64,000 nucleotides of DNA from an uncultured delta proteobacterium (lineage in GTDB: Bacteria; Desulfobacterota; Binatia; UBA9968): assembly GCA_963737905.1 (NCBI GenBank), contig CAVTUQ010000014.1, forward strand, positions 96,001 through 160,000, read 5' to 3'. Both the position numbers and the translations under genes were made by a program. A model generated the notes under the pieces. It did no database searches, had not been told where the DNA came from, and was given only the letters and a program-made list of their open reading frames with translations. Of this stretch, positions 12,583 to 54,381 are shown one piece after another. Position 1 is the first letter of the stretch; each line of letters starts with the position of its first letter.

Positions 12583-14169
12583 CTAACGTCCATCGTCGTG
12601 ATGGCGGTCACGATCGCGCCGATCTTCGCAAACGAAGTTCGCCGCATCATCGATGCTGCCAGACCCCACGTACCGCGCCACTTGCGGGTAAGCACAGATG
12701 GGACGTGTGCGGGTCACCGCGCCGGCAGTAACCCTGGAGGCAATGATCTCCTCCGGGGCCGTGCCCTCCTCGACCCAATCCTCAAGCGCGCTCACCAGGT
12801 CCAACGTATTGGGCCCTCCAGGGTTGGCTCCGCCACAATGTCCCACATTGGGCAATAGGAAGAGTCGGACGAAATCCTCCGTTTTGTCCGGGTGACGCCG
12901 GTTACGATCGGCTTTGGTCCGAATCCTGTTGTAGTAATCAATGGTGTCCACCGGGTTTGGCAGTGGGTCGGATTCACCATGCCACACGATCATCTTGCCG
13001 CCACGCTTATTGAAGGCGGTCAGATCTGGGTTGTCCGCGTTGTGGATGAACTCTAGTGTCTCACCATCGAACTCCTTGTTGAGCGTATATTCGACGTCTC
13101 TGTCGAAAGTGAAGGTCGTGAAGTTATAGTTGGGATCTTCGAAGACCGTATTCTGAAAGAACGTGGTGTATTGTGGATTTGGCACGTCCCCGATCGATTG
13201 TCCCTGATCGAGTTCGCTCGTCCTCGGCACCCCTGGATAGACCTGTTCGCCCGTGGCCAGGTTCACCGGTGGCCCGGCGTACATACATTGGAGGGTTTCG
13301 ACCTGGGGCGCGGTGAGACACGTCGGGTTGTCGGCACCGGTGCAGAGCAAACTCTTGGGCTGGAACTTGCAGCGCCGCGGGTCGTCGACCTGGCCGTCCA
13401 CAAGACCGTCCAGGTGGTCGCAGGCCGCTATTACCGCCTTGAAGATTGCCGGCAGCTTGCCGACCGGGATGGCGTGCGCGCCGGTCGGATCCTCATGATT
13501 GCACTGCCAGGTCCAGACATGCCGCGATCGCAGTTGGAGCACCCGGTAGACAGGTGAGCCAGCGATGATGCCATCGTAGTCGTCGGGGTAGCGCTGGGCC
13601 TCCATGAACGCCTGCCGGCCGCCAGTCGAGCACCCGTTGAAGTAGGAACGCTCGGGATCGGCTCCGTAGAAGCCGTTGATGATCGCTTTGGACTTCAACG
13701 TGAGCTCGTGAATCGATCGATAGCCGTAGTCCTTGATCTGCTGCGCGTTGGTCCACCAGGGATCGCCAGGGGCGTTGGAGCTGTGCCCAGTGTCCGTAGA
13801 TGCTGTGGCATAATTGCGACTGAGCGCGGTTTGCATGTCCGAGAAGCTAATCGATCCGGCCAGGCCGCCGTTGCCGACTGCCTGGAATTTCCCGTTCCAG
13901 TCTACCGTCGGTATCCAGACTTCGAAGAGGATCGCCGGCGTTATGACCCCTCTCACCCGACAGATGGGAAGCGCAATATTGCCGACCGGGGACGGATTCG
14001 GGCCCGCTGGCAGGGACTCGACAAGCATGATGGTTGTTTCGGGTAAGTTCAGGGCCGCGAATGTCTCGAGGGTGCAGGGCGCAGTCGTAGCTGCGACCGG
14101 CTCCGGAGCGAGCGCGCCCGTTGCAATCATGGCGATGGAGAGAACAATGAGAAAGAAGCGGCGACTCAT
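12583..14169 (-). CDS. Secreted tannase/feruloyl esterase family hydrolase, copy A
   Basis: Signal peptide, WNGKFQAVGNGG, TDTGH, GCSTGG nucleophile, HGESD, GHCGG, RPICAYP. Confidence 0.93.
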   Translation of the reverse strand: MSRRFFLIVLSIAMIATGALAPEPVAATTAPCTLETFAALNLPETTIMLVESLPAGPNPSPVGNIALPICRVRGVITPAILFEVWIPTVDWNGKFQAVGNGGLAGSISFSDMQTALSRNYATASTDTGHSSNAPGDPWWTNAQQIKDYGYRSIHELTLKSKAIINGFYGADPERSYFNGCSTGGRQAFMEAQRYPDDYDGIIAGSPVYRVLQLRSRHVWTWQCNHEDPTGAHAIPVGKLPAIFKAVIAACDHLDGLVDGQVDDPRRCKFQPKSLLCTGADNPTCLTAPQVETLQCMYAGPPVNLATGEQVYPGVPRTSELDQGQSIGDVPNPQYTTFFQNTVFEDPNYNFTTFTFDRDVEYTLNKEFDGETLEFIHNADNPDLTAFNKRGGKMIVWHGESDPLPNPVDTIDYYNRIRTKADRNRRHPDKTEDFVRLFLLPNVGHCGGANPGGPNTLDLVSALEDWVEEGTAPEEIIASRVTAGAVTRTRPICAYPQVARYVGSGSIDDAANFVCEDRRDRDRHHDDGR

Positions 14170-16114: not shown

Positions 16115-17725
16115 ATGCATCGTCACTTCAAGTTTCCTGTCGTCTCGGCGGTTCTGCTCGTGATTGCAGTGTTTGTCTCAACCCCGGCCGGAGCAGACGA
16201 CTTTCGGAATCATCGGCCGCATCAGATTTCGTGCGGGGATCTTGCGAACCTCAACCTCCCGGACACCATCATCATGTCGGCGGAAGAAGTTCCGGCCGGC
16301 CCGTTCCCCTTCGGCAATGTGGCACCGACCTGCTCGTCGGACATCGCCTCACCGCAGCTGCCGGCGTTCTGCCGCGTCCAGGGCACGATCGGGCCGGGGC
16401 AGATCAACTTCGAGGTGTGGCTGCCGCTCGAGGGCTGGAACGGCAAGTTCGAGGGCCTCGGCAACCACGGCTTCGCCGGAAACATTGAATACTCAGATAT
16501 GGGCCCCGAGCTCGTGAAGGGATATGCGGTAGCCGGTACCGATACCGGCCACGCCGGCAGCGCTCCTCTCCCCTGGATGCAGAATGAGCAGCAAATCAAC
16601 GATTATGGCTCTCGCGGCATCCACGAGATGACCGTGAAGAGTAAGGCCATCATCGAGGCGTTCTACGGCAAGCCGCCGAAGTACTCTTACTTCAACGGCT
16701 GCTCGACCGGTGGCAAAGAAGGATTGATGGAAGCGCAGCGCTATCCCAAGGATTACGACGGCATCAACGTGGGAGGCTCCGCCAACTTCGCGCAGATCCA
16801 CAACCGCGTGCAGTACGTGTGGAACGGGCAGGTAACGTTCGGCAGGGGGGTACCGCTTGCGGGCTCTACGCTCGCGCTCATCAATGACGCGGCCGTGGCG
16901 GCGTGCGACGATCTCGACGGCGTCGTGGACGGCGTAATCGATGATCCGCGTAGCTGCCCCTTTGAGCCGGCGAGCCTTCTGTGCAGTTCTGGTCAAGACC
17001 CCAATACCTGCCTGACAGCGGCGCAGGTCGACGCGGTGGAAAAGGTTTACGAGGGGCCGCGCAACCCGAGAACCGGCGAGGAGATCTATCCGGGCCTGGT
17101 GCGCGGCAGCGAGCGCGGCTGGGGCGGGCACACCGCTGGGCCGAACATCTTCAGCACGGCTGATCAGTTCTTCAAATTCATGGTGTACAACGATCCGAAT
17201 TGGGATTACAGGACGTTCGATTTCGACAGCGACCTCGCTTATACCGACGCGAACTTCTCGCAACTGCTCGACGCGATCGATCCCGACCTTAGCGCTTTCA
17301 GGAAGCACGGCGGCAAGATCCTATACTCCCATCTCTGGAGTAGCACGACTCACACGGCAACCCGCAGCATCGAGTATTACGAGGACGTCGTGTCCTTTCT
17401 CCGCGGACGGAGAGATCGTCGCGACGAGGCCCTCGAGAAGACACGGGAGTTCTTCCGGCTGTTCATGGCGCCGAGCGGAAGCGGCAGCAACGGGCCCGAC
17501 ACTTTCGACTCGCTTCCCTATCTCGAGCGATGGGTCGAGCGAGGCATCCCCCCAAAGAGCATCCTCGCTTCGCACAAGACCAGCGACGTAGTGGATCGTA
17601 CGCGACCCCTCTGCCCGTATCCCGAGGTTGCCGTGTACAAGGGTAGCGGCAACACCGATGAGGCGGCGAACTTCGTTTGCCGAGACCCGCGCGACCGCGA
17701 CCGCCATCACGACGACGGACGCTGA
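16115..17725 (+). CDS. Secreted tannase/feruloyl esterase family hydrolase with atypical C-terminal catalytic motifs
   Basis: WNGKFEGLGNHG, TDTGH, GCSTGG, RPLCPYP; usual HGxxD and GHCxGG replaced by HLWSSTTH and APSGSGSNGP. Confidence 0.9.
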   Translation: MHRHFKFPVVSAVLLVIAVFVSTPAGADDFRNHRPHQISCGDLANLNLPDTIIMSAEEVPAGPFPFGNVAPTCSSDIASPQLPAFCRVQGTIGPGQINFEVWLPLEGWNGKFEGLGNHGFAGNIEYSDMGPELVKGYAVAGTDTGHAGSAPLPWMQNEQQINDYGSRGIHEMTVKSKAIIEAFYGKPPKYSYFNGCSTGGKEGLMEAQRYPKDYDGINVGGSANFAQIHNRVQYVWNGQVTFGRGVPLAGSTLALINDAAVAACDDLDGVVDGVIDDPRSCPFEPASLLCSSGQDPNTCLTAAQVDAVEKVYEGPRNPRTGEEIYPGLVRGSERGWGGHTAGPNIFSTADQFFKFMVYNDPNWDYRTFDFDSDLAYTDANFSQLLDAIDPDLSAFRKHGGKILYSHLWSSTTHTATRSIEYYEDVVSFLRGRRDRRDEALEKTREFFRLFMAPSGSGSNGPDTFDSLPYLERWVERGIPPKSILASHKTSDVVDRTRPLCPYPEVAVYKGSGNTDEAANFVCRDPRDRDRHHDDGR

Positions 17726-17765: not shown

Positions 17766-18017
17766 GAGACGATCGCTGGTCTGAGTCGATCGCGATCGGC
17801 AGCGAGGGATTTGGTTGAGCAAGTGAAAAATGAATTGGGCTTCAGAGCACAACATCGCCAGGTTGCCGTGGCGGACGGTTTGTATACTCTTCGAGAGCCG
17901 GTGCCGCCTTATGGCGACCATTTCGATAGGGAAAATGAGACTCTAAGGCCAAATAACACCGTTCCCTGGCAAACAAACCTTGAAACAACAGAGGCTTAGC
18001 CTGGTCCGACCCCAACG
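17766..18017 (+). mobile_element. Y1-transposase 3'-end remnant, family C, copy 1
   Basis: Encodes DDRWSESIAIGSEGFVEQVK.ELG...LREP..PY...; ends GGTCCGACCCCAACG; near-identical to copies at 26603, 30293 and 35750. Confidence 0.8.
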
Positions 18018-18284: not shown

Positions 18285-19274
18285 CTATTTTCCCCTTCCC
18301 TTCCTCTCCTGCGCCAGCTGCTCAAGAAAAGATAAATCCAACAACTCGTTCACGTTGAGTTTCATCCCGGAGAGATTTTTGTCGTTGGCGATGACATTTT
18401 CCATCGCTTTAGCCGTAACGATAGGCAGTCCCGGCGTTACCCGGCTATAAACCATGCGGGTTTCCTCCAGCTCTTCGGTGTTGTTGGAGCGGTAGTATTC
18501 ACCAAGGTATTTGAGCACGCGGTCCTTGTTTTTATTGTCGCGATAAAAATCCATCCCATCGGCCAAACCGCGCATAAAATTCATCACCGTCTGCCGGTCG
18601 GATCGAATGAACGACCATGTTGTGACCGGTCCGGCGACAGTGTATTCGAAGTCTTCCTTTGAGAAGTCGAGAAAGATCGGATAATTCGCTTTACGCGCTT
18701 TCAGCGTAAATGGCGATTGCAGCAGGGTCGCTTGAACTTGCCCGGAAACGAGCGCCGTCCAACGGTCGCCCTGTCCACCAGCACCGACAATCTGCACATC
18801 TTTATCCGGCGTTAACCCCAAGCGCCGAAGCGCTAACCGGGCAATAAAATCCGTGCTGGAGCCCAATTGACTGACCGCAAGTCTCTTGCCCTTGAGATCT
18901 TCCGGCTGTTTGATCAATGGATGCGCCGCCAAAATGTAATCCAAGCGATTACCGACCGCGCCGATAAATTGTAACTCCTTCGCCCCCTGCGCCCACGCAG
19001 CCACCACCGTCGAAGCGCCCTGTAATTGCATCAGCAGATCACCGGAGAGCGCCGCCTGAATGCCCATCAACCCGCCGCGTATGTAGATCGGCTCGAGCTT
19101 TAACCTGTACTTTTCAAACGAACCCGCGCGATACGCAACCCAAAAGTAACTAGACGAACCACCAAGAGGATACCCGACCTTGAGTTCTCTCATCTTGGTA
19201 CTCTGGGCAAAAACAAAGTTCGGAAGAAGAACGAAAATGCAGCACATCAGATATAAAAGTCTTTTAATTTTCAT
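18285..19274 (-). CDS. ABC-type substrate-binding protein, NMT1/THI5 family
   Basis: Signal peptide, QAALSGD, DLKGKRLAVSQLGSSTD, ALVSGQVQAT, LLDLSFL. Confidence 0.88.
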   Translation of the reverse strand: MKIKRLLYLMCCIFVLLPNFVFAQSTKMRELKVGYPLGGSSSYFWVAYRAGSFEKYRLKLEPIYIRGGLMGIQAALSGDLLMQLQGASTVVAAWAQGAKELQFIGAVGNRLDYILAAHPLIKQPEDLKGKRLAVSQLGSSTDFIARLALRRLGLTPDKDVQIVGAGGQGDRWTALVSGQVQATLLQSPFTLKARKANYPIFLDFSKEDFEYTVAGPVTTWSFIRSDRQTVMNFMRGLADGMDFYRDNKNKDRVLKYLGEYYRSNNTEELEETRMVYSRVTPGLPIVTAKAMENVIANDKNLSGMKLNVNELLDLSFLEQLAQERKGRGK

Positions 19275-19555: not shown

Positions 19556-19770
19556 TGGCCTTGGCCAACGGGATGGTGTCAGGAAACCTTCGCACCGGAG
19601 TCTTGCCGTAGCACTCTCGATAGCAAGATCATGCTCTTCAAAAAAACAGCAGCACTCGGTCATTCCGGTCATTGAGGATATCCTTAGCCGTAATCGGAGT
19701 CTTACAATCATAGAGTTTGGCAAAGGCCACCTTGCTGTAAGTATCAATGAATGTCTGGTTGATATCCGCC
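19556..19770 (-). pseudogene. IS481-family transposase fragment, internally deleted
   Basis: Reverse strand reads QTFIDTYSKVAFAKLYDCKTPITAKDILNDR...FFEEHD and CYGKTP...DTIPLAK. Confidence 0.7.
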
Positions 19771-19805: not shown

Positions 19806-21634
19806 TTAGCGGTGGCCTCCCCGATCGCCCCCATCGTGCTTGCCGTCGTCCCTGTGATCTTCACGGTGGCCGGCGCCCTTCCCGATCCTCCCTACGCAGC
19901 GAAAGTTGGCGGCATCGTTGATATCACCGGAACCCTTATAACGGGCCTGTTTCGGATACGGGCAGAGCGGACGGCTGCGTGATTCCACTCCAAAGTAGCC
20001 GGGGTCGCTCGCCGTTGCTACAACGCTATCCGGCGCGACGCCGTTTTCTACCCAATTGACAACCTCTGGAAACATCTCGAAGTCATCCGTTGAAGGCCCA
20101 CCACTACAGTGATTCATGCCCGGCACCACAAACATTCTTGCAAATTTGGCGACATTACCGCTCTCCTTGGCATTCACATCGTTGTACCAGTCAATTGTTG
20201 CGTTAACTGAAAACGCGCCGTCCGCTCCACCTTGGTAAACGATCAATTTGCCGCCGTGAGCCTTAAACCCAGACAGGTCGGTGGAGTCGATTGATCCCAG
20301 ATCAGCCGCCGACACCGTATATATCCCCGCTGTTTCGTTTACCCTCTCAAGAAAGGTATCAAAATCGAAACTTAGCTGGAACGGAACACAGTCGTTGGCG
20401 GTAACAAAAGGCAGCACCGGATAGGCAGTATACCTAAGCGCGGATGATGCACAGCTCCTAGTTACCCTCTGGGCATTGTTGGTAGTCGCGTTAAAGGAAC
20501 GAAGCACCCAAGAGCGCCAGCCTTGGTTAAAGGTCGAACCTGACTGACCACCGATACCCGGATCCCACGGCCAGTCGGAATACAGCTGCGTTCCTTGAGA
20601 GTCCTTCATCCCAGCCATCACGGTCTGGAGCGCCTCAACCTGATTCACCGCTAGGCAACTGCTGGTTTTCGCTTCCGTGCACGTCAGCGCTGCCAATTCG
20701 GTGTTCACCAATTGTGACGTACATGCCGGCATGTTGTCGACAATACCGTCTTCAAGCCCATCCAGCCTGTCGCACGCCGCTAAAACGGCATTCCTTATCA
20801 ATAGCAGATCCTGGTCGGTGTAGGTCTTGTTGATAAGCGGGTTGCCGGCGGAGTCAAAACTCGTCGCAATCTTAGCGAACACTTGTGTGGCATAAGCGCC
20901 ATTAGCCGACGAGAATGCCGCAGAATCCGGGATCGCCTGTGACGATGCCGTCGAAATGTTCGGAAACGTCTGCGCCATCAACATCCCCTCCGCCCCACCT
21001 TCGGAACACCGACAAAATAGGAAAATTTGGGCTTCTTTCCATAATAGAGGTAAAACGAACTCTTTACCCACTCGAACGGTCTGGTCATAAGAGTTGTAAG
21101 AGAAATCGATTCTGCCTGTGGATCGATGGAGAATACGTTAGTCCGCCTACATTGGGATCGTTTTGGTCGCACTATCATGTCCGGAATCCGTCCGATCGTG
21201 ACGAAGCCTTGCGGCAAAACACTCGTCGGATCTACAACGGTACCGTTCTCCGCCGCCACCGCCCATGTAGAATCGCTCGTTCCACGCGGTGGGCATGCGG
21301 ACACGGAACTTGATAGCGTAAATCTGTCCACCCACACCTACGCGCTCGTTGATCTTGCCATCGATAAGGCAATGCTCTGGCAGACTCTGGGTAGCCGCGG
21401 TAAGGACGCCGACGTGATAACGACCTTATTTATCGTGAGGCTGGTAAACGCGCTAAGGGAACTGCAGCCGATAATCGGAGTTCGGTAGCGTGTGAGTCTC
21501 TGGAGGTGCCCCGCGATGATCGTCGGATCGCCCTCATTCGCTCCACCGCTTTGAGCAGTACCAGGGACTCTCCATCATGATAATGGCCGCGGCAAGAAAC
21601 CCGAGTAGTCTCACTTGAGTAGAGAAATAGTCAC
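19806..21634 (-). CDS. MHETase-like tannase-family esterase; multiple frameshifts in the 5' third, probably sequencing errors
   Basis: Frames stitch to LPEHCLIDGKINER...YAIKFRVRMPTAWNERFYMGGGG, CSEGG, NQGWRSW.L.SFN..NNAQRV, GADGAFS, VPGMNHCSGGP, PGYFGV..RSRPLCPYP; GGGGGAG RBS before GTG at 21634. Confidence 0.85.
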
Positions 21635-21881
21635 GGTGATCTCCCCCTTGTTTTCATATTCCTCCTTTTCATTTGTTATCCGAGAGCATCTCAGCTTTTT
21701 GTCAGTAGAACGATCGTCAATTTTGCTCCGCTCTCCTCATTTTTTTCCGTCGTTGCGTATATCCTGCTACAGTAAATGAATCTTCTGTCCACTACATTTT
21801 TACTTAACTTTATCTTTTGGATTGTTCCTATTCCTGCGTTTGGGTATAGTCTCCGTCGATTGATCCGGGGACTAGGACATA

Positions 21882-22740
<859 letters not shown>

Positions 22741-24047: not shown

Positions 24048-25036
24048 ATGGCCGCCATCTATTTCCACGGCGAGTTCTCATTAGGAGGGGAGGGCCTTCA
24101 GATCCTCGACGAGTTGCGCAAGCGTTTCGGGCGGGACACGTTGACGACTCGACTCGACCGGCGAGGACCACGAGTCTCGATGATGAGTGATGCCATTGCG
24201 TCCGTTGTGGCGGCGATCGTCTACATCATCGAGCCGGGAACTAAAAAGAAGGACCTCGAATCCGTGTTGCGCCCCGAGCGCACGCGTCCGCTAACGGCCT
24301 CAGAGATCATTAATAGCGATTTCCGTCCGGGCGATTTAGATCCGGCCAACCTCCCTTACTTGCTGGATCGCGATCACATCCTGGACCTCGAGATCCCTGT
24401 TATTGCAGTGCTTGTTGGCGGCGTGAACTCGAATGTCTTGCCTATCTACAAGCGCATCACGCCAATCACCCTTACTGAGAAATCTTGGGCGCATAGGGTA
24501 GCGAGCGTCGTGTCGGCGCTTGAGATGCTCGTGAGCGTCCCGCAGCTTCGCGGGACTTCGAACGACTCCTTGGCAACACTGCTCGAGAGGCGCAAGCCCG
24601 AGCCCGTCAAGCCCGACAAACCCCGCGCCGCGCACGAAGTGTTCGTCAGCTACGCCTTCAAGGACCAGGCGTTCGCTGACGCAATGGTGCGCGCCCTCGA
24701 GGAGAAAGGCATCCCCTGCTGGATCGCATCGCGAGACGTGCCGAAGGCGAGTCCTACGCGAAGCGAATTCCGGGCGCGATTCGCTCAAGCCGGCTAATCG
24801 TCGTGGTGGTCTCCGAGCACTCGAACCCATCGGAGGACGTGCTCAGCGAGGTCACACTCGCGAAGAACGCGAACGTGCCGAGGCTGCCGCTACTGATCGA
24901 TAATTCACCTCTCGACGACGGGCTCGCATACTTCTTCAGCCACCCCGTTCGTCTGTACGCGGCGGGCATGGGGCGCGCCGCCGCCATCGTCGCGCTCGTG
25001 GAGGAGGTGAAGCGCCACCTGCGACGGAATTTTTGA
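24048..25036 (+). CDS. TIR-domain protein (degenerate TIR-like N-domain plus TIR_2 C-domain); frameshift near 24750
   Basis: VFVSYAFKD..FADAMVRALEEKGIPCWIASRD, VVVSEHSNPSEDVLSEV (catalytic Glu), LPLLID. Confidence 0.8.
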
Positions 25037-26324: not shown

Positions 26325-26602
26325 TTTCGGTCTAAGTTAGCTGTTTCACCTTCGGACATCCGCAGACTCGTCTATATGCTCATTCATTGATCCTTTAACA
26401 TCGTGCTGTCAACGAAGTCGTTGTCCTTGTTCAACCGTTAGGCTAAGTGACGTCTGATTATAAGCCATCTTGAGTCTAATGCCAGCTGGGGCACAGTCAA
26501 CCTCTTTTTTGTTTAATTCTATCGAACAAGGCTCCTAGAATCGGTTACCTAGAATTCTCTTAACCTTTAGAAAGCATCCCAAACATCCTCATGTTCTGCA
26601 GG

Positions 26603-26855
26603 CGAGACAATCGCTGGTCTGAGTCAATCGCGATCGGCAGCGAGGGATTTGTTGAGCAAGTGAAAATTGAATTGGGCTTCAGAGCACAACATCGCCAGGT
26701 TGCGGTGGCGGACGGTTTGTATACTCTTCGAGAGCCGGTGCCGCCTTATGGCGACCATTTCGATAGGGAAAATGAGGCTCTAAGGCCAAATAACACCGTT
26801 CCCTGGCAAACAAACCTTGAAACAACAGAGGCTTAGCCTCGGTCCGACCCCAACG
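26603..26855 (+). mobile_element. Y1-transposase 3'-end remnant, family C, copy 2
   Basis: Near-identical to 17766-18017 with the same 3' end. Confidence 0.8.
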
Positions 26856-27093
26856 TCCCGACGTGTCTGATCCCCGCGGATCGGGTCCTCGGAGAATTCA
26901 ATAAAAAGCTTTAGCGAACCGACTTGATGAGGGTTCGCGTCGCTACAATAACGTGGAAGGCCAAAAGCATGGATACACTCCCCGGTGAAGAATTCAGGAG
27001 TACAATGTTTTTGCGTCCCAATCAGTGACTCGTTTTTTTCCTTTTTCCAAATGGAATAAGCTCGGGACCGCATCGTTAAGCGCGGCTCCTATC

Positions 27094-30292: not shown

Positions 30293-30596
30293 AAAAGGCG
30301 CATCGTGAATGGGTCGAAGCAGGATCGAGCGGAGACATAGTGCGACGAGACGATCGCTAGTCTGAGTCGATCGGGTTCGGCAGCGAGGGATCGGTTGAGC
30401 AAGTGAAAATTGAATTGGGCTTCAGAGCACAACATCGCCAGGTTTGTGGGGACGGTTTGTATACTCTTCGCGAGCCAGTGTCGCCTTATGGCGACCATTT
30501 CGATAGGGAAAATGAGGCTCTAAGGCCAAATAATACCGTTCCCTGGCAAACAAATCTTGAAACCAACAGAGGCTTAGCCTGGTCCGACCTCCAACG
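30293..30596 (+). mobile_element. Y1-transposase 3'-end remnant, family C, copy 3 (longest)
   Basis: AHREWVEAG...RRDDR.SES...; ends GGTCCGACCTCCAACG. Confidence 0.8.
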
Positions 30597-30704
30597 TTTT
30601 TTCCGTTTGTGGGACCTAAGTCCTATGCTTTAGTGCGCTCTCGGGGTTTTGCCCTGAACCCTTCCCAATCAAAGAGTTTCGCCAGTGCGTCAGTCTCCGC
30701 ACGG

Positions 30705-32291
30705 CTAGCGTCCATCGTCGTGATGGCGGTCACGATCGCGTCGATCTTCGCAAACGAAGTTCGCCGCATCATCGATGCTGCCAGACCCCACGTACCGCGC
30801 CACTTGCGGGTAAGCACAGATGGGACGTGTGCGGCTCACCGCGCCGGCAGTAACCCTGGAGGCAATGATCTCCTCCGGGGCCGTGCCCTCCTCGACCCAA
30901 TCCTCAAGCGCGCTCACCAGGTCCAACGTATTGGGCCCTCCAGGGTTGGCTCCGCCACAATGTCCCACATTGGGCAATAGGAAGAGTCGGACGAAATCCT
31001 CCGTTTTGTCCGGGTGACGCCGGTTACGATCGGCTTTGGTCCGAATCCTGTTGTAGTAATCAATGGTGTCCACCGGGTTTGGCAGTGGGTCGGATTCACC
31101 ATGCCACACGATCATCTTGCCGCCACGCTTATTGAAGGCGGTCAGATCTGGGTTGTCCGCGTTGTGGATGAACTCTAGTGTCTCACCATCGAACTCCTTG
31201 TTGAGCGTATATTCGACGTCTCTGTCGAAAGTGAAGGTCGTGAAGTTATAGTTGGGATCTTCGAAGACCGTATTCTGAAAGAACGTGGTGTATTGTGGAT
31301 TTGGCACGTCCCCGATCGATTGTCCCTGATCGAGTTCGCTCGTCCTCGGCACCCCTGGATAGACCTGTTCGCCCGTGGCCAGGTTCACCGGTGGCCCGGC
31401 GTACATACACTGGAGGGTTTCGACCTGGGGCGCGGTGAGACACGTCGGGTTGTCGGCACCGGTGCAGAGCAAACTCTTGGGCTGGAACTTGCAGCGCCGC
31501 GGGTCGTCGACCTGGCCGTCCACAAGACCGTCCAGGTGGTCGCAGGCCGCTATTACCGCCTTGAAGATTGCCGGCAGCTTGCCGACTGGGATGGCGTGCG
31601 CGCCGGTCGGATCCTCATGATTGCACTGCCAGGTCCAGACATGCCGCGATCGCAGTTGGAGCACCCGGTAGACAGGTGAGCCAGCGATGATGCCATCGTA
31701 GTCGTCGGGGTAGCGCTGGGCCTCCATGAACGCCTGCCGGCCGCCAGTCGAGCACCCGTTGAAGTAGGAACGCTCGGGATCGGCTCCGTAGAAGCCGTTG
31801 ATGATCGCTTTGGACTTCAACGTGAGCTCGTGAATCGATCGATAGCCGTAGTCTTTGATCTGCTGCGCGTTGGTCCACCAGGGATCGCCAGGGGCGTTGG
31901 AGCTGTGCCCAGTGTCCGTAGATGCTGTGGCATAATTGCGACTGAGCGCGGTTTGCATGTCCGAGAAGCTGATCGATCCGGCCAGGCCGCCGTTGCCGAC
32001 TGCCTGGAATTTCCCGTTCCAGTCTACCGTCGGTATCCAGACTTCGAAGAGGATCGCCGGCGTTATGACCCCTCTCACCCGACAGATGGGAAGCGCAATA
32101 TTGCCGACCGGGGACGGATTCGGGCCCGCTGCCAGCGACTCAACTAGCGTGATGGTCGTTTCCGGTAAGTTGAGGGCCGCGAAAGTCTCGAGGGTACAAG
32201 GCGCGGTCGTAGCTGTGGACGGCGTCGGCGCGAGCGCGACCGTCACAACCAAGGCAGTGGAGAGAACAATGAGAAAAAAGCGGCGACTCAT
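30705..32291 (-). CDS. Secreted tannase/feruloyl esterase, copy B (duplicate of 12583-14169)
   Basis: Near-identical protein except signal peptide and N-terminus. Confidence 0.93.
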   Translation of the reverse strand: MSRRFFLIVLSTALVVTVALAPTPSTATTAPCTLETFAALNLPETTITLVESLAAGPNPSPVGNIALPICRVRGVITPAILFEVWIPTVDWNGKFQAVGNGGLAGSISFSDMQTALSRNYATASTDTGHSSNAPGDPWWTNAQQIKDYGYRSIHELTLKSKAIINGFYGADPERSYFNGCSTGGRQAFMEAQRYPDDYDGIIAGSPVYRVLQLRSRHVWTWQCNHEDPTGAHAIPVGKLPAIFKAVIAACDHLDGLVDGQVDDPRRCKFQPKSLLCTGADNPTCLTAPQVETLQCMYAGPPVNLATGEQVYPGVPRTSELDQGQSIGDVPNPQYTTFFQNTVFEDPNYNFTTFTFDRDVEYTLNKEFDGETLEFIHNADNPDLTAFNKRGGKMIVWHGESDPLPNPVDTIDYYNRIRTKADRNRRHPDKTEDFVRLFLLPNVGHCGGANPGGPNTLDLVSALEDWVEEGTAPEEIIASRVTAGAVSRTRPICAYPQVARYVGSGSIDDAANFVCEDRRDRDRHHDDGR

Positions 32292-32352
32292 AAGGCACCT
32301 CCTACTTTTTTGGTGGGATAGCTTCAAGTTTTATTGTAGAAGAAGCGGGCTC

Positions 32353-32571: not shown

Positions 32572-34110
32572 ATGTACGAAATCAAAATAGACAGATCACT
32601 GTTCATCCTAGCCATAGTTTTGGCTTTTGGTTTGCTCTGCTTTTCCGCATCGCAGGCCCAGCTCCAGCCGACCACAAATGTCGTTGTCACCGACAATCTT
32701 AACAGCGACGGCAATATCAACGTGAACGCGGCGCGCTTGCGACGACCCAGCACCGACGTGTTGGGAAAGGCGCACATCGGCATCTTCGTCATGCATTCTT
32801 TCTCCGGTTACCAGAATTTTTCAGTTTGCAATGGATTGGCCCAGCGGGGTTTTACGACCTTGTGTGCCGACAGCATATGGACGGGACGTCAGGACCAATT
32901 TTACGGCTTTGAGCAGCATGCTCCGGGAATCAGAGCGGGAATCAACTACTTGCGAAACCTTCCCGCTGATCCGGCAACGGGTCTACCGGCCATCTCAAAG
33001 GTCATTCTTTGGGGCCACAGCGCAGGCTCGGCCATGATGTCGTTCTATCAGAACGTCGCGGAAAACGGTCCACGGATTGCCTGCCAGGGACGGGAAAAAA
33101 TCCTTCCCTGCGTTGATACGAACCTACGCAACTTGCCCAAGGCAGACGGGTTGATGTTGTTCGACCCGCAGGAAGGGCCCGACGTATGGTTCTTCAATGT
33201 AGACCCGGCGGTGATTAACAACGCTTGTACTGTCCGGGATCCGCGGTTGGACATGTTCCTCCCCGAGAACGGCTTGACCAGTAACGAGTCCGGGACCTAC
33301 AGCAAGCAATTCTTGAACAGATTTTTCAAGGAGCAAGCCGAACGAAATCGCGATCTACTTGAAGTAGCGCAGGACTTGTTGCGTGCAAAAAGACTGATTA
33401 CCGGCAACCCTGACGAGATGGGCGACGATATACCGTTCACGATCGTTGGCACCACAGATGCGCGGCCATGGAACTATGATTTAAACTTGCGCCACATCAC
33501 CAAGAAGCCGCACGTCTTTCTGTCCCGCGATGGCACGAACAAGTTCCAGATCGTGGAAACCGTTCGAGTTCCCAACGGAGATGCTGAATCAGGCTTGGAT
33601 TGTGCCACTTCGACGCAGACTGTCAACGTGCATATCTGGCTTGGCGCGAAAGCTTTGCGTACCACTGACCAACAAAAAGATGGCAAAGATCATAAAAAAG
33701 ACCACCGGAACAAACACGATGAGATCTACAATCAGACCGAAAATGATATTCTTGGTATCGATTGGGATTCAACCGCCACAAATCCTTACACCAACCTCAA
33801 GGGAGTCGGAAAACATCCAAATGACAATCAGAAGACAACACCACTGCTGATTATCTCCAACGGCGCTTATTACTTTATCGTTCCCGGGGAGATTTACTAT
33901 GATATAGCGTACAGCAAGGACAAAACGTACGCTATATCAGAAGGTGCCGTGCACGGCGGTGGACCCTGCGCCGACTGCACGCGCGTAATCCTCAACAATC
34001 CCGACCTGGCAACTGCCGAGGCCAATGCTTACTGGACCGACCCACAAGGGAACGGCCCACTCGAAAGATCCTTCAACTTCATGGCTGACTGGTTGACCGC
34101 GAGGTATTAG
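32572..34110 (+). CDS. Secreted alpha/beta hydrolase, uncharacterised family
   Basis: Signal peptide, GIFVMHS, LWGHSAGS nucleophile elbow, EGAVHG His motif. Confidence 0.8.
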   Translation: MYEIKIDRSLFILAIVLAFGLLCFSASQAQLQPTTNVVVTDNLNSDGNINVNAARLRRPSTDVLGKAHIGIFVMHSFSGYQNFSVCNGLAQRGFTTLCADSIWTGRQDQFYGFEQHAPGIRAGINYLRNLPADPATGLPAISKVILWGHSAGSAMMSFYQNVAENGPRIACQGREKILPCVDTNLRNLPKADGLMLFDPQEGPDVWFFNVDPAVINNACTVRDPRLDMFLPENGLTSNESGTYSKQFLNRFFKEQAERNRDLLEVAQDLLRAKRLITGNPDEMGDDIPFTIVGTTDARPWNYDLNLRHITKKPHVFLSRDGTNKFQIVETVRVPNGDAESGLDCATSTQTVNVHIWLGAKALRTTDQQKDGKDHKKDHRNKHDEIYNQTENDILGIDWDSTATNPYTNLKGVGKHPNDNQKTTPLLIISNGAYYFIVPGEIYYDIAYSKDKTYAISEGAVHGGGPCADCTRVILNNPDLATAEANAYWTDPQGNGPLERSFNFMADWLTARY

Positions 34111-34309
34111 AAGCGCTGCGATTAAGTCCGTCGCTCGAATCTTCGATGAATGGGTAATTCGCGATTTTTGTTAGGAGAGGCAGAGATTTATCATAAAACG
34201 TGTTTCGCCAGGTTCAATTGGAAGCGAAAAAGAGACAGACACAAAAGAGACTGTCCCCTTAACTTTCCCTTAGCACCACAAATTGTCGAGTTGAAAAGAG
34301 GTTCAAAGG

Positions 34310-35641
34310 ATGAAAACAACAATACATTCATTAGCCGTCCTCGCAATAGTGAGCGTTCTTTCTCTCGCTCCCTCGCATTCGGCGTTCGCCCAAAGTAATC
34401 CCATCTACATTCAATTTTCTCCCGGGGCAGTGAAGGGCGCGCTGTACCGACCTGATAGTGAGCCGGCGCCCCATGTTGGCATACTGGTCATCCATCGCAC
34501 ATCGAACGTTATGGGAAGCCTGACGTGTACCGAATTGGCCACCAGAGGATTTATGGTGCTTTGCATGAACCCGCGTTCCGACAACAATGAGGCTCTAGTG
34601 ATCTGGGAGACCCTAGCACTCGATGTAAAATCGGGCATTGGATTCCTCAGAAAACAACCCGGCATTACCAAAGTTCTTCTTCTGGGCGGCAGCGGTGGCG
34701 GGCCCACGACTAGTTTCTATCAGGCCGTTGCAGAGAATGGGCCTTCCTATTGTCAAGGACCTAATAAGATCATCCAGTGCGGTAATGAACTCGCTGGCTT
34801 GCCGCCTGCAGATGGCATAGTTTTTAGAGACGCCCATCCTGGAAATCCAGTGATCGCGGGAGTAAGAAATATTAATCCGGCAGTTGTCAACGACCGCGCG
34901 ATTTACAATCGCAATGCCCCCGTTAGATTAAATCCAAACCTAGATCCTTTCGATCCCAAAAACGGCTACAATCCTAACGGAGCATCCACCTACTCTGAGT
35001 CGTTCAAAAAGAGGTATTCCGCCGGACAGGCGGAGCGAATGAACACGTTAATCGATCTGGCTTTGCAACGCTTGCATGAGATTGAGTCGAGCGACAATCC
35101 CACAGATGACGATGTATTCATTATTCGAAGGGGCGATAATGCAAAACTTTTCCAACTGGATCTGAGCATCCTTCATAGTACGGTAAAGCCGCAGAAATTG
35201 CTGAAGAACGATGGTACCATCATAACCCAAATCGTCGAAAGCGTAAGGGTGCCCGCTCCCGAACTCGCCCAGCTAAACCCGGCATTCAACGGTGGCACGC
35301 TGTTCTTGACGGTCCGGTCCTTCTTAAGTGCAAATGCGATTCGGGCCTGGGATTCTATCGACGGAATCGATCACTGCTCAAGCAACAATTCAACCGTATG
35401 TGCCGTTCAAAGTATTTCTGTCCCGGTTCTATTCGCCACTATGCAAGGACATTACTTTATACGCGATAACGAAATCCACTATGACCTAGCAAAGAGCAAA
35501 GATAAGGACCTCATTGTCATAGAAGGAGCAACGCATGGAATCACACCCTGCATGCCTTGTGAGCAATTTCCAGGGCAATATTCAAATTCCGTGAAGAACT
35601 TTTTTGATTATGTAGCCGCTTGGATCAATGCAAGATTTTAA
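34310..35641 (+). CDS. Secreted alpha/beta hydrolase, paralog of 32572
   Basis: Signal peptide AFA, LLGGSGGG, SFYQAVAENGP..CQG..KI..C shared with the paralog, IEGATHG. Confidence 0.82.
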   Translation: MKTTIHSLAVLAIVSVLSLAPSHSAFAQSNPIYIQFSPGAVKGALYRPDSEPAPHVGILVIHRTSNVMGSLTCTELATRGFMVLCMNPRSDNNEALVIWETLALDVKSGIGFLRKQPGITKVLLLGGSGGGPTTSFYQAVAENGPSYCQGPNKIIQCGNELAGLPPADGIVFRDAHPGNPVIAGVRNINPAVVNDRAIYNRNAPVRLNPNLDPFDPKNGYNPNGASTYSESFKKRYSAGQAERMNTLIDLALQRLHEIESSDNPTDDDVFIIRRGDNAKLFQLDLSILHSTVKPQKLLKNDGTIITQIVESVRVPAPELAQLNPAFNGGTLFLTVRSFLSANAIRAWDSIDGIDHCSSNNSTVCAVQSISVPVLFATMQGHYFIRDNEIHYDLAKSKDKDLIVIEGATHGITPCMPCEQFPGQYSNSVKNFFDYVAAWINARF

Positions 35642-35749
35642 CATTATCGCCCAAGTTACACCTCACATCTCCCCATCAAATCCGCTTGGATTTGATGGGG
35701 AGTCATGTCACTTCCACTCTTTCCTTTTTGTTTCTCGCCTGCGGTCTGC

Positions 35750-35958
35750 GCGGTCGGCAGCGAGGGCAAGTGAAATTGAATGGGCTTCAGAGCACAACCT
35801 CGCCGAGTTGCAGTGGCGGACGGTTTGTATACTCTTCGAGAACCGGTGCCGCCTTATGGCGACCATTTCGATAGGGAAATTGAGGCTCTAAGGCCAAATA
35901 ACACCGTTCCCTGGCAAACAAACCTTGAAACAACGGAGGCTTAGCCTGGTCCGACCTC
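35750..35958 (+). mobile_element. Y1-transposase 3'-end remnant, family C, copy 4 (degenerate)
   Basis: Matches the other copies with indels; ends GGTCCGACCTC. Confidence 0.75.
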
Positions 35959-36095
35959 ACCGTCAGGTACCAGCACTCGATCAGCTTTTCCCTGGCCGCC
36001 TGTTGCACTCCGCTTCCCCCCTGTGTCAAATAAACGCAACAATCGATCTTTAAACTCCATCGTCGCCGGGTGACAAAAAAAGCGAGAAGCGTGAA

Positions 36096-37063: not shown

Positions 37064-37768
37064 TTATGGCAGTGAATCCTTGTCAAAGGATTGAATTGGT
37101 CTGACGTTTGGTTCAATAATTTCGCAAAACTCTAAAGAATCGGGTTTTTTCATACAGTGGGCACGCTTAATAAAATAAGTGTAGTGATCTGCTAGCTGGA
37201 TTCCCCATGCCTCTTTAGAGTCTGCAAATAAAATCGGTTCTATCAAGTGATTGAATTTAGCCTTTGTTTGCATAACCTTGGTCTTACGATACAACCGCAA
37301 GGAATCTTTAAACATCGCTTCTCTTTGTGATTTGTCGGCAATTATAGTTCCGACTTCACCAGGGGCGCTGCCGCAAAACCAAGTTTCTATTCCCGTTAGA
37401 CACATAACCAATGCTAGATCTTCCGGTTTTATACCGAGGTCTGGATAAAGACTGTTAAAGAACCCGCGTTCCACAAAAGCTGCGTATATTGGTAGTTTGT
37501 GGCGAGCAATCAGCCCTAATACTTCCTTTTGAAGCGATACGCGGTTTTCTCTGCCCCATCGCTGAAAAGCATCTGTCCCCCAAAACAAGTCACGGGCCTT
37601 CAACTCTGTGTCTTCTGAAAGCTCGGGAAAATCTTTTCTCACGTCTAAGAGATCGGCTTCAAAACTCTTCCACTGTTCATCGCCGTTAATAACCACTCCA
37701 GCAACCACAGTGAAGGGTTCCTGATTTGGATCCCCAACGCCGCTCTCGTCGATATAAACAAGGCGCAT
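37064..37768 (-). CDS. DUF3800-like (RNase H-fold) protein
   Basis: LVYIDESG, VVAGV, ELKA, IIAD, DSK...GIQLAD. Confidence 0.8.
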   Translation of the reverse strand: MRLVYIDESGVGDPNQEPFTVVAGVVINGDEQWKSFEADLLDVRKDFPELSEDTELKARDLFWGTDAFQRWGRENRVSLQKEVLGLIARHKLPIYAAFVERGFFNSLYPDLGIKPEDLALVMCLTGIETWFCGSAPGEVGTIIADKSQREAMFKDSLRLYRKTKVMQTKAKFNHLIEPILFADSKEAWGIQLADHYTYFIKRAHCMKKPDSLEFCEIIEPNVRPIQSFDKDSLP

Positions 37769-38097
37769 TATCTTTTGCGCATGTGTTAGGTTCGCAGTTC
37801 TAACCTGCTCGGTCCAATCATACATTTGTATACCCCTTTCGGCGTATCCGTCAAATAAAACGGGCGTCCCAGTTCGGCAACGGCGCGTCGGGATCGATGT
37901 GATAACTATTCGCTATACATTGGTGGTGGCTTCCCAAATCAAGATTTCAGGGATAGTCATTGCGGGGTAGGATTTAGAAGCCTTTGATACGTCGCCCTCT
38001 CTTCTGAAATCTGCTGCATAAACTCTTCTCGCGTAATCAGCCCCTTCTCGATCAACAGCTTCGCCAGTGCATCCGTCTGAGAGTGTGGGCGGAAGTG

Positions 38098-38730
38098 TTA
38101 GTTTGTCGTTTCGGGTCCTCGACAGGCTTTGACAAACGCAGTTCCAAGAGGGGTAAGTCTGATGTTCCTAAAAAGGGTCAAATCGGGTCGCCAAAAATTA
38201 GTGAACGGCAAGTCTATAAGAGCAAGGCGCTCTCCAAGATTCATACATATAACGGGAAGTTCGTTTTCCGGTAGGTTGGCTTCTAGGACCAGGTTGTGCT
38301 CAGAGTCGGGACTTTCCTGTTCCCAAACATATAAGGTGTCCAGTAGTCGAGCCTCCGGTGGCGTTATTTCTGCCAAAACTTTTGGAAATATCGGATGTAC
38401 AGGTGTGCCAGCCGCTGCCGTTGCTAATAGCCCTGCCCATTTTGTGGCTAAATCACCGTCGTTTTCCAAGGATGCGTATTGGACGATTGGAACCAGAAGA
38501 GTCAGTTCAACAGTTGTTGGCGCAATTTTCTTTTCTGAAAGGCGACGCTGGACTTCAGTTATTAACCGCTCAATATTTTGAGAACGTAATAAATTTATGC
38601 GGTCCGCAAGTTTTTCACCGTAAGCGTCTGCAACCGGACCAAGTAAACGAAGGAATAGTTCACGAGCTTCACGCGTGAGTCGTTCAATGGATTCTGCAAT
38701 TTTGCCTAAGCCAATTAAATCATCAGCCAT
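38098..38730 (-). CDS. Abi-alpha (DUF4393-like) family protein
   Basis: PIVQYASLE...L..KWAGLLA.A....VHPIFPKVLAEITPPEARLL and IRLTPLG..FV.AC. Confidence 0.7.
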   Translation of the reverse strand: MADDLIGLGKIAESIERLTREARELFLRLLGPVADAYGEKLADRINLLRSQNIERLITEVQRRLSEKKIAPTTVELTLLVPIVQYASLENDGDLATKWAGLLATAAAGTPVHPIFPKVLAEITPPEARLLDTLYVWEQESPDSEHNLVLEANLPENELPVICMNLGERLALIDLPFTNFWRPDLTLFRNIRLTPLGTAFVKACRGPETTN

Positions 38731-38934
38731 TTCGCGCTCTCGCGTCATCCTAGAAATGCCTGAGCGATGAATAAGATGCTGCACCTATAACGCCACGAGA
38801 GGCTGCTAGTCAAGATTGCAGTAATAATAGCTCGTTTCATCGAATGGTTGGCGTCGCCAAAAGCTTCTCGTCATCATCTTTGACTTTCTATAATAAAATG
38901 CCGACTGAAGGCTCCGAAACCGTCAAGAGTTTCA

Positions 38935-54000: not shown

Positions 54001-54381
54001 CAAGCCGCGTAGGGTTACGAATTTCGATTGTTTGAATCGGATCGCCCATTTCTCGGTACATTGCGGACCCGGCGCGCCGGTTAGGACAACTTGTCCGGGC
54101 GGAAGCGCTGGATCCGCTTCAATGACAATACGATCAAACTCGGTTGCATTGGGAAATTTATTTTTCTCGATCGCGACTTGTTCAGGATAGGTGCCGGTTT
54201 GGATGCGGACGATATCGCCGGGCTGTGCGACATCAACGGCGTCTTGAATCGTGGTGTAACAGGGAGCCTGTCCACCGCAGGCAGGATCCGTGCGACTGAC
54301 GAAGATGATGCTCTGTTGCGACTCTACCGGCCGCGGACAGAACAATATGAAGAAGGTCACAAAGCCTAGGAGTTTTCTCAC
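45038..54381 (-). CDS. Giant secreted RHS/YD-repeat polymorphic toxin (about 3100 aa), one frameshift near 46860
   Basis: Signal peptide, pectin-lyase-like beta-helix, 2 PKD (ANAGGPY, WNFDDG), Ig, carboxypeptidase-regulatory-like domain, YD repeats, RHS core YFRARFYDP..GRF.SEDP...NPV..VDPYGL. Confidence 0.9.

Follow-up and report, generated by a model that had tools for sequence, protein, structure and literature searches.

The 64,000-nt stretch analysed here (the window; positions 96,001 to 160,000 of contig CAVTUQ010000014.1, assembly GCA_963737905.1) carries on its minus strand a gene that, by its sequence, encodes a serine esterase of the tannase/feruloyl-esterase family PF07519, and that diverges from a gene for a LysR-family regulator (Table 1). 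An earlier annotation of this DNA (the original prediction) had proposed a close relative of the Ideonella sakaiensis MHETase, the hydrolase of mono(2-hydroxyethyl) terephthalate (MHET). All motifs that it quoted are located within the gene on the minus strand, its Arg411-equivalent codon is confirmed as AGG, and the arrangement divergent from lysR recurs in the related metagenome locus L127. The motifs that it had given for MHETase are likewise all found in a 603-aa open reading frame (ORF) at locus L120 of Piscinibacter (Ideonella) sakaiensis 201-F6; we located this gene for MHETase through a search of species genomes with a short, degenerate pattern derived from the alignment of the PDB hits.

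In the deposited sequence a single open frame covers only the 3' two-thirds of the gene, and gene callers give merely 390 aa (P0001) of this 421-codon frame. The GTG at 21634-21632 agrees with the MTISLL start of the relative P0006; a second candidate start, also an in-frame GTG (MRLLGF...), lies about 20 nt downstream. By inspection, the N-terminus of intact relatives resembles a Sec signal peptide with an Ala-x-Ala-type site, and the column of the MHETase lipobox residue Cys18 is Phe here, so that the lipobox Cys is lacking.

Table 1. Features of the esterase locus and its surroundings, in window coordinates
Feature	Position	Strand	Basis or remark
Tannase-family esterase gene, whole (about 590 codons plus stop as it should read)	19806..21634	-	PF07519 match of the whole frame; alignment to relatives
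Uninterrupted 3' reading frame, 421 codons	19806..21071	-	ORF list; holds the nucleophile motif, the entire lid region and the Asp/His part
Motif YAIKFRVRMPTAWNERFY	21320-21267	-	
Motif CSEGG	21008-20994	-	
Ser225-equivalent nucleophile codon (C-S-E-G-G)	21003..21005	-	Alignment to MHETase
Motif PLINKTYTDQDL	20840-20805	-	
Motif NQGWRSWVLRSFNATTNNAQRV	20528-20463	-	
Trp397-equivalent codon	20508..20510	-	Alignment to MHETase
Arg411-equivalent codon, AGG	20466..20468	-	Identical column in three alignments
Motif DGAFS	20222-20208	-	
Asp492-equivalent codon (ADGAFS)	20220..20222	-	Alignment to MHETase; Ala494 and Phe495 equivalents next
Motif VPGMNHCSGGP	20126-20094	-	
His528-equivalent codon (MNHCSGG)	20109..20111	-	Alignment to MHETase; Cys529 equivalent next
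Motif PGYFGVESRSRPLCPYP	20003-19953	-	
Gly/His/Asp/Arg-rich C-terminal tail, 29 residues past the last conserved Cys	19809..19895	-	Also in relatives P0002-P0006
Lesion zone	20918..21613	-	DNA alignment with five subfamily loci
Window-private 64-nt insert, signal-peptide/N-terminal region	21499..21562	-	DNA alignment with relatives
Divergent lysR-family regulator gene (helix-turn-helix part 21882-22064)	21882..22740	+	Relatives L127 and L150
Run of exactly 424 T within lysR	22266..22689	+	Homopolymer scan; alignment to L127 and L150
NMT1/SsuA-like periplasmic substrate-binding protein gene, downstream neighbour	18285..19274	-	Not beside the gene in relatives, whose contigs diverge at about 19730-19760
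Two Pfam-less alpha/beta-hydrolase genes, 512 and 443 aa (32572-34110, 34310-35641)	32572..35641	+	Beside another tannase paralog

Family membership and the active-site pocket

The 421-aa ORF scores 236 bits against PF07519 (cut-off 29.8), and the whole esterase frame 280.8 bits with two stops inside. A phmmer search of the ORF against PDB sequences returns 12 matches at E ≤0.001, the top six of which are chains of MHETase (E 7e-107 to 1e-105, aligned over residues about 197-601 of the chains), followed by feruloyl esterases of fungi at E 1e-20 or weaker. With E-values of about 1e-106 the similarity to MHETase is far above chance. The Ser-Asp-His triad is present together with the two bridging cysteines (C-S-E-G-G and N-H-C), and the MHETase lid (residues about 250-470) aligns with few gaps, in keeping with the predicted retention of the lid segment. 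Five conserved disulfides, with a pairing described in the literature, are found in the tannase family. The lipobox aside, MHETase has ten Cys columns, and P0002, an intact relative, has Cys in all ten, two of them lying in the part of the gene that is frameshifted in the window. Homology to MHETase is shown at least for the segment covered by the PDB matches, and we take it to extend along the length of the protein; at 48% identity the common fold is not in doubt.

The proposed closeness did not hold. In one alignment, the window ORF has 46.4% identity to MHETase (182/392) and P0002 has 48.5% (268/553), no more than four Burkholderiales homologs (P0011, P0018, P0048 and P0052; 47.5-48.6%). 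At least 119 other database proteins score 389 bits or more against the window ORF, compared with about 360 bits for the MHETase chains in the PDB search, although these scores come from two different searches and the comparison is a rough one. According to Knott et al. 2020 (PMC7568301), MHETase is <53% similar to most of 6,671 family sequences, and two biochemically confirmed homologs are 81% and 73% identical to it, a level that neither the window ORF nor P0002 reaches. High identity is not an absolute criterion for MHETase activity, since Mle046 is active at 46.9%. A small number of shared pocket residues, at an identity of about 47%, is not enough to define an MHETase; by homology, the esterase is a further member of a known enzyme family, in a small unnamed soil subfamily.

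The pocket of MHETase has been described by Palm et al. 2019 (PMC6461665), according to whose structural account Phe415, Leu254 and Trp397 surround the substrate ring, with Phe495 joining from the core, while the free carboxylate is bound by Arg411, which Ser416, Ser419 and the backbone of Gly258 keep in place. In our alignments the subfamily keeps the triad (Ser225, Asp492, His528), Cys224 and Cys529, Glu226 and Gly132, as well as Trp397, Ala494 and Phe495. Position 411 is Arg in the window and in P0002, P0003, P0004 and P0007, and Lys in P0005, P0006, P0008 and P0009. Lys occupies this position in 102 of 102 closer homologs, and among 124 cluster representatives of 480-800 aa Arg is found in three and Lys in five. 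The full set of Arg411, Trp397, Ala494-Phe495 and Glu226 occurs, among the sequences examined, only in MHETase, in its relative P0123 and in five of the nine subfamily members. The smaller combination of Arg411, Trp397 and Phe495 equivalents, as aligned, is limited to these same sequences among those examined, and this is the real kernel of the original prediction.

Other pocket positions differ from MHETase. Ser131 is Gly in all eight relatives, and the window reads GGGGG there beside a 2-nt deletion; Leu254 is Arg in the relatives, and its codon in the window sits at two 1-nt deletions; Trp398 is Val in the subfamily, and position 424 is Tyr or Thr. The 412-420 loop has one extra residue compared with MHETase, as a result of which positions 415/416/419 are read differently by different alignments: S/C/S, S/A/A or R/S/S in the three that we made. 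Because of this disagreement only Arg411 is securely assigned in that loop. The earlier reading of Phe415 and Ser416 as S/C is that of the pairwise HMMER alignment, the other alignments giving S/A or R/S, and position 419, put forward as conserved, is Ser in two alignments and Ala in the third. Of the ring-wrapping residues, then, Trp397 and Phe495 are retained, position 254 is Arg in relatives, and position 415 is Ser or Arg rather than Phe.

According to passages of Knott et al. (PMC7568301), Ser131 is important for MHET affinity, the S131G variant has about 3% of the efficiency, and an F415S variant is cited as greatly reduced; in the same source, a Hydrogenophaga homolog with Gly131 and Ser415 is active and about 20-fold less efficient than MHETase. 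We also noted, in other Burkholderiales records, three MHETase genes about 99% identical to that of I. sakaiensis, in Xenophilus aerolatus (CP166702.1; L104), a Rubrivivax metagenome-assembled genome (MAG; L115) and a Piscinibacter MAG (L108). The Xenophilus and Rubrivivax copies show 7-8 differences and have Gly at 131; the Piscinibacter copy differs at one residue.

Frame breaks in the esterase gene and the poly-T run in lysR

The deposited sequence does contain the frameshifts implied by the original prediction. When the gene is aligned to the intact P0002 in a frameshift-aware manner, 12 of them fall between 21511 and 20922 and none downstream, a further deletion lies near 21613, in the seventh codon, and the 64-nt insert interrupts the N-terminal region. 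DNA alignment with five subfamily loci resolves window-private 1-nt deletions at 21485, 21408, 21192, 21163, 21143, 21115, 21011, 20960, 20927 and 20918, a window-private 2-nt deletion at 21250, and one extra base at 21057. In all there are about 14 frame-breaking lesions in the 5' 700 nt of the gene and none in the 3' 1100 nt, where (19806-20917) the sole private indel is an in-frame 3-nt insertion at 20166-20168. Under uniform placement, the probability that 14 lesions all fall in the 5' 700 of 1810 nt is about 2e-6. The lesion zone and the clean zone do not differ in their density of private substitutions (20 per about 600 nt and 35 per about 1100 nt, respectively), and the distribution of indels and substitutions between the zones differs with a Fisher p of 9e-6.

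Of the 17 bases that are missing, 12 are C when read on the strand of the gene. Beyond this excess we found no common motif at the deletion sites, which are not in homopolymers. At the site of the 64-nt insert a related contig carries 27 other letters (around 21480-21572), and a search of the genome for a second copy of the insert found none. That purifying selection has continued in the lesion zone is read from the frameshift-aware alignment to P0002 only. Contigs from soil runs (4 runs from 3 studies), 85-99% identical to the window, carry the letters absent at 21142, 21247, 21249 and 21407; these contigs indicate that the relatives are intact, not that the lesions of the window are errors.

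The damage continues into lysR, which has five window-private 1-nt deletions at 22044-22194 before the lesions end at the 424-nt poly-T run. In L127 and L150 the place of this run is taken by ordinary lysR sequence, about 455 nt long, with 436 nt between the matching flanks, and the frame that follows the run ends ...DFLHQLKRLH*, akin to ...DFLRELKRLH* of the L127 LysR. The matching flanks together with the resumed lysR frame imply that the poly-T replaces real sequence of nearly equal length; the run itself is most likely an error of assembly or basecalling. In a scan of the 46 contigs for homopolymers of at least 15 nt we found only this run and poly-G runs on contig C26 (C26:102946-103041).

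Elsewhere the assembly appears sound: open frames of 100 aa or longer cover 95% of the median 5-kb bin, and coverage is under 60% in only 4 of 1321 bins. At the esterase locus this measure is uninformative, as the poly-T itself reads as a long open frame. A clean remainder of the assembly is what would be expected if the gene were a genuine, recently inactivated pseudogene, the frameshifts being biological and the enzyme no longer made. The roughly 14 frame-breaking lesions in the deposited sequence, and their position outside homopolymers, fit this explanation too, as do the three tannase paralogs of the window, which are intact, so that errors are not general, and which could render a nearby further copy dispensable. 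Neutral decay should, however, spread indels over the whole gene rather than confine them to its 5' part, and private substitutions are not raised in the lesion zone. Moreover, the lesions run on into lysR and end at a poly-T that stands in for about 455 nt, for which there is no plausible natural event, and the excess of C among the missing bases also speaks against decay. We consider a pseudogene unlikely. Read together with the intact paralogs, the sound remainder of the assembly and the related contigs that carry the missing letters, the lesions and the poly-T most probably reflect a locally poor consensus in a long-read-type assembly and not gene decay. The organism probably carries an intact esterase gene, and the broken gene of the MAG is probably an assembly artefact that gene callers have turned into a truncated 390-aa protein.

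Phylogenetic placement and likely substrates

The closest relatives of the esterase are eight near-full-length proteins (P0002-P0009; 76-84% identity, 585-654 aa) and shorter fragments such as P0010 and P0012, all of them metagenome-derived and named by automatic labels only. With one genome taken per GTDB species, no relative above 47% identity was found (six loci confirmed from 50 pattern-matched stretches), and in 40 sampled relatives of the window genome the esterase gene is absent except for one weak partial match (E 2e-9). Metagenomes of the Joint Genome Institute (JGI) yielded 28 loci, five of which belong to the subfamily (L125-L128 and L150). Among representatives of 50%-identity clusters there are 11,017 family members at E ≤0.001, the best only 51% identical to P0002. 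The subfamily is also represented, by small shares of words, in soil runs belonging to 14 studies, from which the 4 runs of 3 studies mentioned above were aligned to the window; its habitat is soil and rhizosphere. It is known so far only from soil metagenomes and from the Binatia-like MAG of the window.

For phylogeny we sampled every third listed hit with a length of 540-720 aa and, from representatives P0121-P0185, those of 500-760 aa; two paralogs of the window served as outgroup. In the resulting FastTree of 105 rows the subfamily forms a 9-row clade (support 100) nested in a 43-row clade of Lys411 homologs (support 99), with MHETase and its 73%-identical relative P0123 outside the latter. 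An IQ-TREE quick analysis of 44 rows, made by removing 10 near-duplicate rows, places the subfamily in a 33-row clade without MHETase (95 in the Shimodaira-Hasegawa-like approximate likelihood ratio test, SH-aLRT). Constraining the subfamily, MHETase and P0123 to one clade is not rejected by the approximately unbiased (AU) test (log-likelihood difference 6.5, p-AU 0.39). Our best estimate is that the subfamily would fall outside the MHETase branch. Assignment to the MHETase clade, as originally put forward, is therefore not what either maximum-likelihood (ML) tree shows, although the AU test leaves a sister relationship possible.

We propose that the enzyme would be a Sec-secreted esterase using the canonical two-step acyl-enzyme hydrolysis described for MHETase. 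The lid would form the acyl pocket, in which the Trp397 and Ala494-Phe495 equivalents would pack on an aromatic ring, and the Arg411 equivalent (Lys in four of the eight database relatives) would bind a group that is anionic or strongly polar and sits para to the scissile ester. This model of the lid and Arg411 pocket would make monoesters of para-substituted aromatic acids the likely substrates. With Ser131 as Gly, Leu254 as Arg and Phe415 replaced, MHET may at best be a low-affinity side substrate, as for Mle046, and not a dedicated one. The LysR regulator probably controls the esterase gene, judging from its divergent position, which is kept in L127.

A characterised marine MHETase-like enzyme for comparison is Mle046 of Celeribacter/Pacificitalea manganoxidans (WP_097374464.1; gene sequence taken from plasmid pDY25-B, NZ_CP021406.1, PMC7666164). 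It belongs to the same basic-411 clade, shares Gly131, Ser415, Ala494, Phe495, Trp397 and Glu226, stands at a similar distance from MHETase (46.9%, PMC8351946) and has a Sec signal (PMC7666164). Its kinetics as given in PMC8351946 are a Km of 2.6 mM and a kcat of 81 per s for MHET, with bis(2-hydroxyethyl) terephthalate (BHET) not cleaved. In contrast, Mle046 is 46% identical to P0002, has Lys411 and Phe254 in place of the two Arg residues, groups in the tree with h_P0113 and not with the window subfamily, and is encoded on a conjugative plasmid, within a Tn7-type transposon and next to a TRAP transporter (PMC7666164). The residue set held in common with this active enzyme makes detectable MHET turnover plausible, and we put the chance of weak turnover, by this analogy, at near even. 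A dedicated, high-affinity MHETase is unlikely.

MHETase itself (EC 3.1.1.102; PDB 6QZ1-6QZ4, 6QG9-6QGB, 6JTT/6JTU and 8EKG) shares with the subfamily the family, the catalytic and pocket residues listed above as kept together with Arg411, the ten disulfide cysteines (in P0002) and secretion. It differs from the window or subfamily protein in having a lipoprotein signal where the subfamily has a Sec-type signal, and in lacking the 29-residue His/Gly/Asp/Arg tail, Gly131, Arg254, Ser or Arg at 415, the extra loop residue, Val398, and Tyr or Thr at 424. The contexts differ also: on the I. sakaiensis contig a Rieske oxygenase alpha-subunit gene lies about 1.8 kb away, whereas no terephthalate genes lie beside the window esterase. 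We take this Rieske gene to be TphA2. Its best match in the window genome is 28% over 410 aa, and the two PF00848 genes of the genome score far below every NCBIfam equivalog cut-off, so that no terephthalate-dioxygenase-like gene was found in this 87% complete MAG.

The nearest named sequences are uncharacterised Burkholderiales homologs (among them those of Paraburkholderia caledonica and caribensis and of a Variovorax sp. SRS16 plasmid), which are 50-55% identical, fall in the same ML clade and share Gly131, Glu226, Trp397 and a basic residue at 411. They differ in having Lys at that position throughout, Leu or Ile at 254, mostly Ser at 494, Val or Ile at 495, and no His-rich tail. Fungal feruloyl esterases (AoFaeB, 3WMT; FoFaeC, 6FAT) share the fold, the family and the CS-D-HC catalytic arrangement, but their alignments are only partial, with E-values of 1e-18 to 1e-20, and according to the pocket comparison in Palm et al. 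2019 (PMC6461665) fungal tannase-family feruloyl esterases do not conserve the residues of the lid pocket.

Taken as a whole, the explanation that we favour, a PF07519 esterase with a pocket for a para-anionic group, damaged by assembly and intact in the organism, has in our estimate a probability of about 0.6. Several observations weigh against it. The source-sample reads were sought by a run search whose best run contained 0.22 of the sampled words, and the lesions are not proven to be errors; the deletions lie outside homopolymers and have no common motif; about 480 nt between the two lesion clusters (21564-22040) are free of private indels, so that the low-quality zone would not be uniform; and the 64-nt private insert is unexplained. 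On the side of function, the substrate assignment leans on the alignment to MHETase, in which 415-419 align three ways, Arg254 in the pocket is without precedent among characterised enzymes, the neighbouring genes offer no clue to the substrate, and the 40 sampled genome relatives lack the esterase gene apart from the partial match given above.

Among functional alternatives, a generic esterase of feruloyl or tannin type, with phenolic esters of plants (ferulate, gallate, chlorogenate) as substrates, would hold the common residues as family background and have no preference for a para anion. The soil and rhizosphere habitat agrees with this, as does the placement of MHETase among proteobacterial ferulic acid esterases in the relevant passage of Knott et al. 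(PMC7568301), and in relatives the gene is accompanied by two alpha/beta-hydrolases whose fold matches include cinnamoyl and chlorogenate esterases. Sources also label the relatives 'feruloyl esterase' or 'tannase/feruloyl esterase family', although these names are automatic annotations and not tests. However, a basic residue at 411 is rare family-wide (8 of the 124 representatives, as Arg in 3 and Lys in 5) yet fixed as Lys or Arg in this clade, which argues for a specific anionic or polar partner, and MHETase is inactive on coumarate, caffeate, chlorogenate and p-hydroxybenzoate esters as far as the assays described in Palm et al. 2019 (PMC6461665) go. A generic esterase is thus improbable in our view, and we retain a pocket for a para-anionic or polar group as the better account.

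A bolder extension of the proposed pocket is that the subfamily may be an independent natural lineage of para-carboxy-aromatic (terephthalate-type) monoester hydrolases in uncultured soil bacteria, with the MHETase-like Arg411/Trp397/Phe495 pocket and a second basic residue, Arg254. With the two Pfam-less alpha/beta-hydrolases encoded beside it in relatives, it would make up a multi-esterase module under LysR control that acts on aromatic polyesters or on natural counterparts of these, a parallel to the PETase/MHETase pair but of unrelated origin. We regard this as doubtful speculation. If intact orthologs did cleave terephthalate monoesters, MHETase-type chemistry would reach beyond Proteobacteria into abundant uncultured soil bacteria, and a natural Arg411 scaffold with a different lid (Arg254, Ser415) would be at hand for engineering.

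A true MHETase, that is, a hydrolase dedicated to terephthalate monoesters that works as in I. sakaiensis and either evolved in a soil Binatia-like bacterium or reached it by transfer, is very improbable, for although the narrow distribution of the Arg411, Trp397, Ala494-Phe495 and Glu226 set, the p-AU of 0.39 and the MHET turnover of enzymes with Gly131 and Ser415 speak for it, identity is no nearer than that of Lys411 homologs, the ML trees place the subfamily outside the MHETase branch, Ser131, Leu254 and Phe415 are replaced (the first and last in ways that are costly in the variants cited above), half of the eight database relatives have Lys411, the lipobox Cys is lacking, the Rieske and PF00848 comparisons fall far short, and the subfamily is seen as small word shares in soil runs of 14 studies.

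Host genome and neighbourhood

The source genome is a 6.7-Mb MAG of 46 contigs (87% complete, 6.7% contamination). Its isocitrate dehydrogenase is 87-88% identical to those of Binatia and Syntrophobacteraceae MAGs, and one neighbouring protein is 75% identical to a 'Candidatus Binatus' protein, which bears out the predicted host outside the Burkholderiales. The genome has four PF07519 genes, all situated within 20 kb of the window. The tannase cluster looks acquired, because none of the 40 sampled genome relatives has the family.

Besides the esterase described above, the cluster comprises three intact tannase-family genes, at 12583-14169 (-), 16115-17725 (+) and 30705-32327 (-), which share only 35-38% identity with the MHETase-like gene and are without its pocket residues. 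Between the first and the third, identity is 98%; these two form a segmental duplication that includes flanks (12493-12792/30615-30914 and 14196-14264/32330-32398). All four tannase-family proteins of the window finish in a short, highly charged His/Asp/Arg(/Gly) tail past their last conserved Cys (...RDRDRHHDDGR in the paralogs). Such tails are found in 21 of 9,459 stop-free frames of at least 150 aa; four of these are the tannase genes and the other 17 look non-coding. Neither P0002 nor the tannase paralogs have a family in NCBIfam.

The two Pfam-less alpha/beta-hydrolases of the window are 48-54% identical to orthologs that directly flank the MHETase-like gene in L127 (5407-8299) and L128 (43-3015), where the pair is paralogous and of about 450 and 478 aa. 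A search of a Pfam-less alpha/beta-hydrolase against PDB sequences gave no match at E up to 1, and its structural model (predicted local distance difference test, pLDDT, 89.6) has fold matches only to generic esterases and lipases (TMq about 0.4), with no clue to the substrate. The hydrolases of this pair are secreted, and their family, found in soil bacteria (Binatus, Acidobacteria, Bryobacteraceae), numbers at least 3,437 proteins.

At Rfam gathering thresholds there is no match in the window. A repeat of about 250-290 nt is present in four copies (17766-18017, 26569-26860, 30346-30597 and 35749-35964) that are 90-100% identical, each situated just 3' of a gene. It lacks an Rfam match, is confined to these four sites within the 6.7-Mb genome, and could have been left behind by modular duplication or be a local element of a mobile or regulatory kind. 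Defence- and toxin-type genes lie downstream, at 24048-24797, 37064-38784 and 45038-54381, and include those for a TIR-domain protein, DUF3800 and Abi_alpha proteins, as well as for an RHS/YD-repeat protein of 2,564 aa that has PKD domains and after which a second RHS-repeat ORF follows; their presence suggests a variable genomic island.

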